Positions 34,901 through 37,900 of a stretch of DNA of 64,000 nucleotides are shown here, in pieces. Position 1 is the first letter of the stretch. Each line of letters starts with the position of its first letter. The notes beneath the pieces were generated by a model. It was not told the origin of the DNA. It made no database searches and saw nothing but the letters and a program-made list of their open reading frames with translations. The position numbers were made by a program, and so were the translations under genes. The DNA is from Glaucostegus cemiculus (Eukaryota): the NCBI GenBank assembly GCA_976551045.1, contig CDPCPM010000073.1, forward strand, positions 34,286,001 through 34,350,000. Direction: 5' to 3'.

Positions 34901-37900
34901 CCTTAAACTGAACTGTTATCATGAAGAACATAGAACATTACCGCACAGTACAGGCCCTTCGGCCCATGATGTTGTGCTGACATTTTATCCAACTCTGAGA
35001 TCTATCTAACCCTTCCCTCCCACATAGCCCTCTATTTTTCTATCATTCATGTCCCTATCTAAGCTTCTCTTAAATGTTCCTAATGTACCTGCCTCCACCA
35101 CTTCTACTGGCAGTACGTTCCATGCACCCACCGCGCTCTGTATGTAAAAAAAAACTTACCTCTGACATCCCCCCATACCTTCCTCCAATCACCTTAAAAT
35201 TCTAATTTTTAAGGTGATTGGAGGAAGATTCTAATATTTTGTTTTGTACTAATATACTAACTTTTTGCCCTTATTTTACATATTATCAGAAGTAGTTATT
35301 AATAAAGTAGATTTACCAGTGAAGTATGAATTGGTGAGCTTCTTTTGTTGCTGGTTTCGTAACAAAATTGGGGGCTCGTCCGGGATTTGAACCCGGGACC
35401 TCTCGCACCCCAAGCAAGAATCATACCCCTAGACCTCATATTAGCCATTTTCACCCTGGGAAGAAGTCTCTGACTGTTCACTCGATCTACGCCTCTTATC
35501 ATCTTGTGCACCTCTATCAAGTCACCTCTCATCGTCACTCCAGAGAGAAAAGCCCTAACTCACTCAACCTATCCTCATATTTTTCCGGTGTTTATGAGAA
35601 TAACAACATTGCAGGCTGAAAATCATGTTGTAAACAACACATCCTGTGTTGACTACTGCATCATCAACGTGCACAGATCTATACATCTAAGGTGGATAGA
35701 CCAGAGTCTTCAGAGGACACAGGAATATAATGGACACTTAAATAAAAAAAATCCTTTTCAGATGTATTTCTTGAGGGGTCTGAAATAATTAGACAATCAA
35801 TGCATCTTTTTACTGAATTTAAATTGTTGTTTACTTGGTGATATTGGTTTGTGCTTTCAGACTAAAGATGTGTACAAGTCTAAGGAAGAAAATCAAATTT
35901 TGGTGCTGCTTTCACCAAATTACTTCCTTAACATGGTGTGGTCACATAAACAGGTAAGGATCAAATTCAAGTGTCTGACCTGNNNNNNNNNNNNNNNNNN
36001 NNNNNNNNNNNNNNNNNNNNNNNNNNNNNNNNNNNNNNNNNNNNNNNNNNNNNNNNNNNNNNNNNNNNNNNNNNNNNNNNNNNNNNNNNNNNNNNNNNNN
36101 NNNNNNNNNNNNNNNNNNNNNNNNNNNNATACAGGAAACAACATTCAAATAGGAAAACATTTAGTCAAGATGATTTTTAGATATAAAGGGGACCAAGGGA
36201 TAGGGGTTAGTGCAGGAAAGTGGTGCTAAGGTAAAAGATCTGCCATGAACTTGTTGAATGAAAATGTCCTACACCTGTGTCAATGATGTACTATTGTTCT
36301 GATAGAAAAATGGCTGGCGGAAAAGATCACAATGAGGTAAGGATACAAGATGACAATAAATTACAAATCAATCTGCTGTGATGTTGCCAGAGGATGAGGC
36401 CTCTGTATTTGCAATCCAAAACTTATATATAGCACGGTAACATGCCCTTAACATGCCCAACAAGTCCATGCTGCCCAATTAAACCCATGTTAACCTACCC
36501 ATATGTCTTTGGAATGTGGGAGGAAACTGGAGTACCCGAAGGAAACCCACGCAGACATGGGGAGAATGTACAGACTTCTTACAGATAGTGACAGGGACTG
36601 AACCCTTATCGTTGCCGCTGTAATAGCATCACACTAACCGCTACACTACCGTGCCATTTATTTTTGTCTCACCTCTTCTTTTTCTTGCTTGGCTCCCTAC
36701 TCTCCTTTCTGGTTTTCATTCTTCTTTGACCCTCTGAATTTTCTGAACGATGATTCATGGGAGAAGGTGTACTGTGTTCGGGAAAGGAGCCTTCAGTGGC
36801 TCTGGTTCTGCATTTGGGACAAGGGTGTGAGTCTCTTCCTATGCCCTCCTCAACCGCATACTCCTTCACTTCCCTATTGTCCATGAACTCCCCTACTGTC
36901 AACCCTTTACCTGTTCTCCTGAAATTCTTGTTAATCCAGCCCTGCCAGCTCTGATGCCCCCATGTTACATTTCAATCTCAATCCCATTCTCACTTACAAA
37001 CTCTCTCAACCACAACCAGGGTTTCTCTCCTCTCCTCCTTCTCTAATTTCTTATTGGTTTGCTGCAAAGAGCCTTAAACAAACTAAATCATGCTTTTCTT
37101 TATGAAGTAGACCAATTTCTTGCCCTTCTTTCTTCTCTTTCTCTCTCTCTCTCTAAATCTCTCTCTCTCTCTCTCTCTCTCTCAATATCTCTCTCTAAAT
37201 ATCTCTAAATATCTCGACACAAACTTGAATTACTAAGGCAAAGAAAGCTAGGGACCAAATACTGGCAAATGGGATTAATGCAGATGGATAATCGATGGTC
37301 GGCATGGCAATTGTGGGCTGAAGGGACTACTGTACGACTCTGTGACACTTATGTTAGCCATTCAATAGCATCAGTTTAAATCATTTTAATTTGTTTGACA
37401 GAAAATGAAAGGCATTTTCATTGAAAACATCTGTGAAACATTTGACAGTTTTATAATGAGAGTTCTAGGCAAGCGGTTTCATAGAACAGCCACGCTGGCT
37501 GTCATTGGATTGGATACCTACAGAAGGTAAGTGTGAGCTCCCGGCATGTGCCAGAGATCTACTCTCTCTTCAGACTTGCAACAGATTTGAGGACTCTCAT
37601 CCCTTCATCTTCCTTGTTAACACTAAGAGATGCTAGGTGCACAGAAATGCACCAGCACTTTAAATGCCCGCCACCAGCCCGTTCACTTTAATAACTATTT
37701 ATTTATTTACCGGACATTTTTAATTTAATCTGCGTATTAACTTAATTTTAACTTCCGTAGTTTTTAATGTTTAATGTTTTTTAATGTTTATTCTGTTAAG
37801 TGTGTCTGTGTGTCTCTGTTGGTTGTTATTTAATGGGACGAGCACCTGAGGAGGACGGTATCTCGCTCCTATGCATACTATGTATGTATATGGTTGTGAC

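Follow-up and report, generated by a model that had tools for sequence, protein, structure and literature searches.

The GGG anticodon of a truncated tRNA-Pro copy in the window (the whole 64-kb stretch of DNA that was analysed) probably derives from a mature tRNA-Pro(IGG) primer whose inosine-34 was copied as G by the reverse transcriptase (RT) of a Gmr1-type LTR retrotransposon, which likely overshot m1A58 and ran on to about position 9. An origin from RNA and a G34 caused by modification, as proposed in a preliminary description of the window, are strongly supported because there is no GGG gene among 55 tRNA-Pro sequences, no copy carries A34, the G arose repeatedly, and it is accompanied by signatures at positions 58, 38 and 9-10. 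That description also named tRNA-Pro(IGG) as the template and regarded the primer isoacceptor as identified. Inosine is indeed the most likely source of the G; the isoacceptor of the window copy is likely IGG but not proven, since a single copy cannot be assigned when AGG and TGG tRNA bodies are identical and PMC11251516 reports G at a modified U34. A single copy would not have carried the claim for inosine; the family to which it belongs does.

Structure of the window copy

The tRNA copy lies on the complementary strand. Its anticodon loop (tRNA positions 32-38) occupies 35413-35407 with G at 35411, which is tRNA position 34 (A, T or C in the genes) and is likely inosine read as G, giving the anticodon GGG as the preliminary description had it. 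Its statement that the sole other difference is a C-to-T change at a CpG of the anticodon stem also holds when the copy is compared with L007, an intact tRNA-Pro(AGG) gene from this genome: besides G34, the only substitution is C29>T at 35416 (complementary strand), which recurs in 5 of 35 family copies and is likely post-insertion decay. By this comparison the copy covers positions 9-73 without an intron (35372-35435, complementary strand), starting at 35435 with positions 1-8 absent. Its mature-tRNA CCA end (35371-35369) is joined to the LTR end, and on the forward strand the primer-binding site begins with these three bases; intact genes instead end in other triplets followed by runs of T. 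Position 58 (35387, complementary strand) is an unchanged A, and the modification-type signatures of this copy are G34 and an end at 9-11. Identity as a functional tRNA-Pro(GGG) gene was rejected, as the acceptor stem is incomplete and ARAGORN called no tRNA anywhere in the window. Rfam at curated thresholds also returned nothing in the window, RF00005 scoring 28.8 bits on the copy against a cut-off of 29. Both results are explained by the missing positions 1-8.

On the forward strand, the left part of a high-copy interspersed host repeat (34925-35201) is interrupted by the insert, at whose left junction lies a 21-nt fold-back copy of host positions 35179-35199 (35207-35227, complementary strand, 100% complementary). 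This is followed by the final 140 bp of the 827-bp LTR of a Gmr1-type Ty3/gypsy element (35225-35364, forward strand, 92% to a full element), a 4-nt spacer (35365-35368), the 18-nt primer-binding site as in normal family elements (35369-35386), the tRNA complement up to about position 9 and the right part of the same host repeat (35434-35579). The LTR end, the primer-binding site and a primer complement extending past position 58 are therefore all present in one copy. The outer end of the tRNA copy is ambiguous by 2 bases (9-11), which are microhomologous with the host repeat. On comparing the break with uninterrupted host-repeat copies (5 of 11 displayed across it), we found about 6 bp lost, 2 bases of microhomology where the tRNA part ends and no target-site duplication. 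Neither the two LTR-type ends nor the 4-bp duplication of an integrase-type insertion is present, and the missing duplication, the 6-bp loss, the fold-back junction and the microhomology suggest that the fragment was likely patched into a DNA break by end joining. The copy is likely a dead-end by-product without function. Its LTR part being only 140 bp long, minus-strand strong-stop DNA to which the primer was still attached is another potential source of the window copy. Separately, the region 30001-32000 of the window is GC rich (62%) as opposed to 32-48% GC in the remaining window.

The parent retrotransposon

The pattern of LTR end plus primer site has 2612 exact matches in the genome and the LTR end by itself 10237. 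In all 30 of the 30 sampled matches to the combined pattern, the normal 18-nt primer site is followed by internal sequence. A Pfam search on natural open frames of three elements gave SCAN, zinc knuckle and integrase, then RT and RNase H. Gmr1-like elements have integrase ahead of RT-RNase H in the same order (bioRxiv 10.1101/2025.03.03.638093; PMC4131045), and from this predicted domain order we class the parent as a Gmr1-type Ty3/gypsy retrotransposon with a tRNA-Pro primer. The SCAN domain in gag is another feature that the parent shares with the Gmr1-like elements of these two papers; those have a coding part, whereas the window keeps only the LTR end and the primer copy. The parent LTR is 827 bp long and 4-bp target duplications flank all four of four full elements. 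An endogenous retrovirus as parent is unsupported, given the Gmr1-type domain order and no env family match in the 6 longer frames that were scanned.

The family of LTR-fused tRNA-Pro copies

A search with tRNA-Pro positions 43-76 and CCA, leaving position 58 free, found at least 169 copies in the genome. Sequences were sampled for 97 of the 169; a set of 99 comprises these and a few from another search, with duplicates merged. At least 800 bp of LTR is present in 68 of the 99 copies, which therefore point to a plus-strand product, and minus-strand strong-stop DNA was rejected as the general source of the family on the same whole-LTR count. Beyond the tRNA part, many copies run into an inverted LTR 5′ end or into internal sequence. 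In L004, L008, L020, L024, L031 and others the element terminates in the inverted LTR 5′ end, so that both termini are the same LTR end, and 4-bp duplications are present. Of the copies with both ends visible, 27 of 30 have a 4-bp duplication of their own and are therefore separate integrase-type insertions.

Some copying of chimeras appears to have occurred, judging from shared junctions in a few copies (6 groups among the 97). The pairs L017/L023 and L063/L113 each have a common junction between the tRNA and the internal region. L017 and L023 are unlike at position 58 and in the loop, and this chimeric element may have replicated again. Three copies (L070, L082 and L096) go over into a different tRNA at position 38, identified by ARAGORN as Gly(gcc) in L082; this switch is likely a template hop between tRNAs, and these three, which show an apparent G34, were excluded because their 5′ part is another tRNA. 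Some individual copies may also be mentioned. L029 (G000:C32:2815041) is a full-length tRNA-Pro(CGG) copy that starts from position 1, sits on an LTR end and looks like a complete tRNA gene. L073 and L176 are G34 copies followed by an unrelated downstream sequence common to both, possibly a second tRNA-Pro-primed element family. In L026, an antisense fragment resembling another tRNA, possibly tRNA-Asp, directly adjoins the tRNA-Pro copy.

tRNA-Pro genes in the genome

A pattern search requiring an exact match over positions 1-36 found 55 5′-intact tRNA-Pro sequences, which by hand count have AGG in 29 cases, TGG in 24 and CGG in 2 (one of these being an LTR-fused copy itself). None of the 55 has GGG, which speaks against the genuine Pro-GGG genes considered in the preliminary description. 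The tRNA-finder count suggested there for the same purpose would mislead: ARAGORN labels 10 fossil copies as tRNA-Pro(ggg), and all its GGG calls are LTR-fused copies without the 5′ acceptor strand. After splicing, the AGG and TGG genes are identical except at position 34, and no usable body variant separates the two. A 16-18 nt insert, likely an intron, follows the anticodon in 42 of the 50 5′-intact sequences examined, many of which look like duplicated or decayed paralogues; the window copy has no intron, and intronless AGG, TGG and CGG genes exist too. Most 5′-intact AGG and TGG sequences (L183, L184, L187-L226) have this insert and lie within duplicated blocks. An RF00005 search for other primer families, meant to tell inosine from modified U, gave little besides Lys-TTT and Cys-GCA genes and copies in decay among the 30 loci examined. 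On G000:C594 (L232-L256), tRNA-Lys(TTT)-like repeats are densely clustered, and many of these are decayed.

The base at position 34

The 18 members of the 97-copy set that extend to position 29 or beyond span the anticodon and were picked regardless of position 34; G is found in 15, T in 3 and neither C nor A in any. The probability of finding no A among 18 is 1.4e-6 at the gene share of 29/55 and 7e-4 at a share of one third. A mismatch-tolerant search gave G in 34, T in 3, C in 2 and A in none of 39 copies (a hand count that includes three copies with common flanks), or 26/3/2/0 for G/T/C/A when equalised to at most one other mismatch for all. The pooled long copies, a G-enriched set from which L173 was omitted as a duplicate junction, have G in 31, T in 4, C in 4 and A in none (n = 39). 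A34 is thus absent from the CCA-bearing copies (0/18, 0/39 and 0/39, in overlapping sets), though AGG is the largest gene class. Five copies whose loops contain additional bases (L023, L025, L064, L114 and L116) were excluded from these counts. Most simply they have T34 and a G35-37 run lengthened by one or two G, the alternative for four of the five being an extra T before G34; on the former reading, U34 primers are visible as T.

An ordinary point mutation at 35411 after insertion would be a common A>G transition, and the window copy does have one other change. At position 34, G is found in 31 of the 39 pooled copies (15 of 18 in the unbiased set), compared with a single G among the 333 cells that the pooled copies have at other A positions, so that the excess of G34 that the preliminary description proposed to look for is present in this family; the four A positions left unconstrained by the family search give 1/138. 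Non-CpG changes amount to 17/1982 in the pooled tRNA parts and CpG changes to 26/388, these background rates being biased low because the searches limited mismatches and many cells were constrained. No A34 precursor copy was found either, and we consider such a mutation very improbable. A single founder chimera that had mutated to G34 and spread as a SINE-like master element would fit the few copies with common junctions and is the least credible of all the alternatives. A tree was built on 500 bp of LTR and covers 27 normal elements and 26 long copies, the remaining 13 of the 39 long copies, among them the window copy, being omitted for their short LTRs. On it, the 21 G34 copies require 16 changes and a single G34 clade is rejected (p-AU 1.8e-8, bootstrap not settled). 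The G34 copies are scattered over this tree and the G therefore arose repeatedly. The target-site data contradict a founder too, the 5′ ends and flanks differ, positions 34 and 58 show 7 combinations of states among the pooled copies, and G34 is also found with the unrelated downstream sequence of L073 and L176.

That a real tRNA-Pro(GGG) gene gave the primer, being absent from the assembly or diverged from the search pattern, is hardly probable. The exact match demanded over positions 1-36, a possibly incomplete assembly and the 10 loci labelled Pro(ggg) leave some room for it, but none of the 55 sequences is GGG, every GGG call is a fossil of the kind described above, the missing A34 copies would stay unexplained, and eukaryotes are stated to be without Pro-GGG (PMC8062790). 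An unlikely but more substantial alternative accepts the same overshoot and takes G34 to be a modified U34 (ncm5U) of tRNA-Pro(UGG) mispaired with C by the RT. In the tRNA-Pro primer of HTLV-1, mostly C was found opposite position 34 and ascribed to ncm5U34 (PMC11251516). Also, the share of T34 here (3/18, or 7/22 on including the slipped copies) is below the TGG gene share of 24/55, as misreading of U34 would also produce, and the identical AGG and TGG bodies make the template of a single G34 copy unreadable from its sequence. Yet T34 copies exist (4/39, plus the 5 with G slippage), and were U the source of every G, AGG as the largest gene class would supply no primer at all. On human tRNAs the m1G37 signal is present on Pro-UGG and absent on Pro-AGG (PMC8062790), which by itself would deplete T34 in long copies. 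The extra G in the loop of the five copies fit UGG primers that stumble at 37, which would bias long copies towards IGG. Moreover, inosine-34 gives G stoichiometrically, and such reads of Pro-AGG get mis-assigned to U34 isoacceptors including Pro-UGG (PMC8062790); modified U34 is absent from the RT-readable modifications listed in PMC11770116. We therefore retain inosine-34 as the likely source of the G.

Other probable modification signatures

Position 58 is A in 74, G in 14, T in 9 and C in none of the 97 copies, giving G or T in 23/97. Five of the nine T58 copies have a common junction and are likely a single event. In the mismatch-tolerant search with any position free, 8 of 39 copies differ at 58 and none of the 39 at 57 or 59. 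The 5′ ends of the copies also cluster, with 24 of the 86 ends between positions 12 and 43 falling at 38; another 11 ends lie at 6-11 and none at 1-5, the full-length CGG copy having come from the other search. A pile-up at 32 is in part artefactual, arising where copies fold back onto the primer-binding site. With assignments from the literature, we infer that the changes at 58 and the ends at 38 and about 9-10 are marks of m1A58, m1G37 and m1G9, the last of which we take to be carried by tRNA-Pro. The three modifications are among those that RT can read, as is inosine-34, which gives 100% misincorporation without a stop (PMC11770116).

Proposed mechanism and comparison with known systems

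The fusion of the tRNA copy to LTR and primer site, the recurrence of G34 in independent copies and the target duplications are established. On the proposed mechanism, plus-strand strong-stop synthesis would run past m1A58 into the primer, with G or T resulting at 58 in about one copy in four, would read inosine-34 as G and would stall mainly at position 38 or near 9-10. The over-long end, incapable of normal strand transfer, may then move to a new template, be it its own LTR, the internal region or a different tRNA, and integrase would insert products with two LTR ends, creating the 4-bp duplications.

Over-extended retroviral plus-strand strong-stop DNA likewise continues from the LTR and primer site into the tRNA past 58 and has a second stop at the modified base 37; such products end at tRNA positions 55, 54 or 37 or at the tRNA 5′ end (PMC13191261, PMC11251516). 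For HIV-1, the over-extension products ending at 55, 54 and 37 are minor and transfer is by short products only (PMC13191261). There they are described as minor or dead-end products in vitro or in cells, whereas here such copies are fixed by the hundred in the germ line, belong to a Ty3/gypsy element and mostly have 4-bp duplications. The signatures of tRNA sequencing resemble those described here, namely A34>G without a stop, mixed bases at A58 and blocks at G37 and G9 (mim-tRNAseq, PMC8062790; Induro-tRNAseq, PMC11770116), except that those are laboratory cDNA libraries, while here the signature is written by a natural element and inherited. Tailless tRNA retropseudogenes (PMC5322556) are also truncated tRNA copies made from RNA; they are 3′-truncated, made by LINE-1 and flanked by target duplications, in contrast to the family copies, which are 5′-truncated, retain CCA and are joined to an LTR. 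This identity was rejected for the window copy, which is 5′-truncated, keeps CCA and has no duplication.

The chemistry is known step by step from the bench; a population of germ-line insertions preserving tRNA modification signatures would be a new kind of genomic record. We found no paper on genomic copies preserving I34 or m1A58 signatures in the open-access literature, which was covered mostly by abstracts. An older strong-stop model has reportedly been put forward for the origin of SINEs.

A wider reading, for and against which we see the case as evenly balanced, is that a natural tRNA-seq library is inherited with the genome and records, for individual tRNA-Pro molecules of the germ line, I34, m1A58, m1G37 and m1G9. 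About 1 in 15 primer-site-bearing copies (169 as against 2612, a rough figure) would then be overshoot products, all three isoacceptors would have primed in vivo, m1G37 would be isoacceptor-specific, with UGG stalling or slipping at 37 and IGG being read through, and fold-back rescue would give integrase-competent DNA with two LTR ends. If this inherited-library reading is true, tRNA modification could be read from genome assemblies, in the past and for unsampled species. What makes the family of interest is the record of tRNA modification and primer use that it passes on by inheritance, the window copy itself being non-functional. It provides in vivo evidence on the tRNA-Pro isoacceptors that prime an LTR element and on the frequency with which m1A58 fails to stop synthesis. 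Also, the G34 described for the HTLV-1 primer (PMC11251516) may alternatively be read as the inosine of Pro-AGG. Where automated annotations list ‘Pro-GGG genes’, these can be fossils of this kind.
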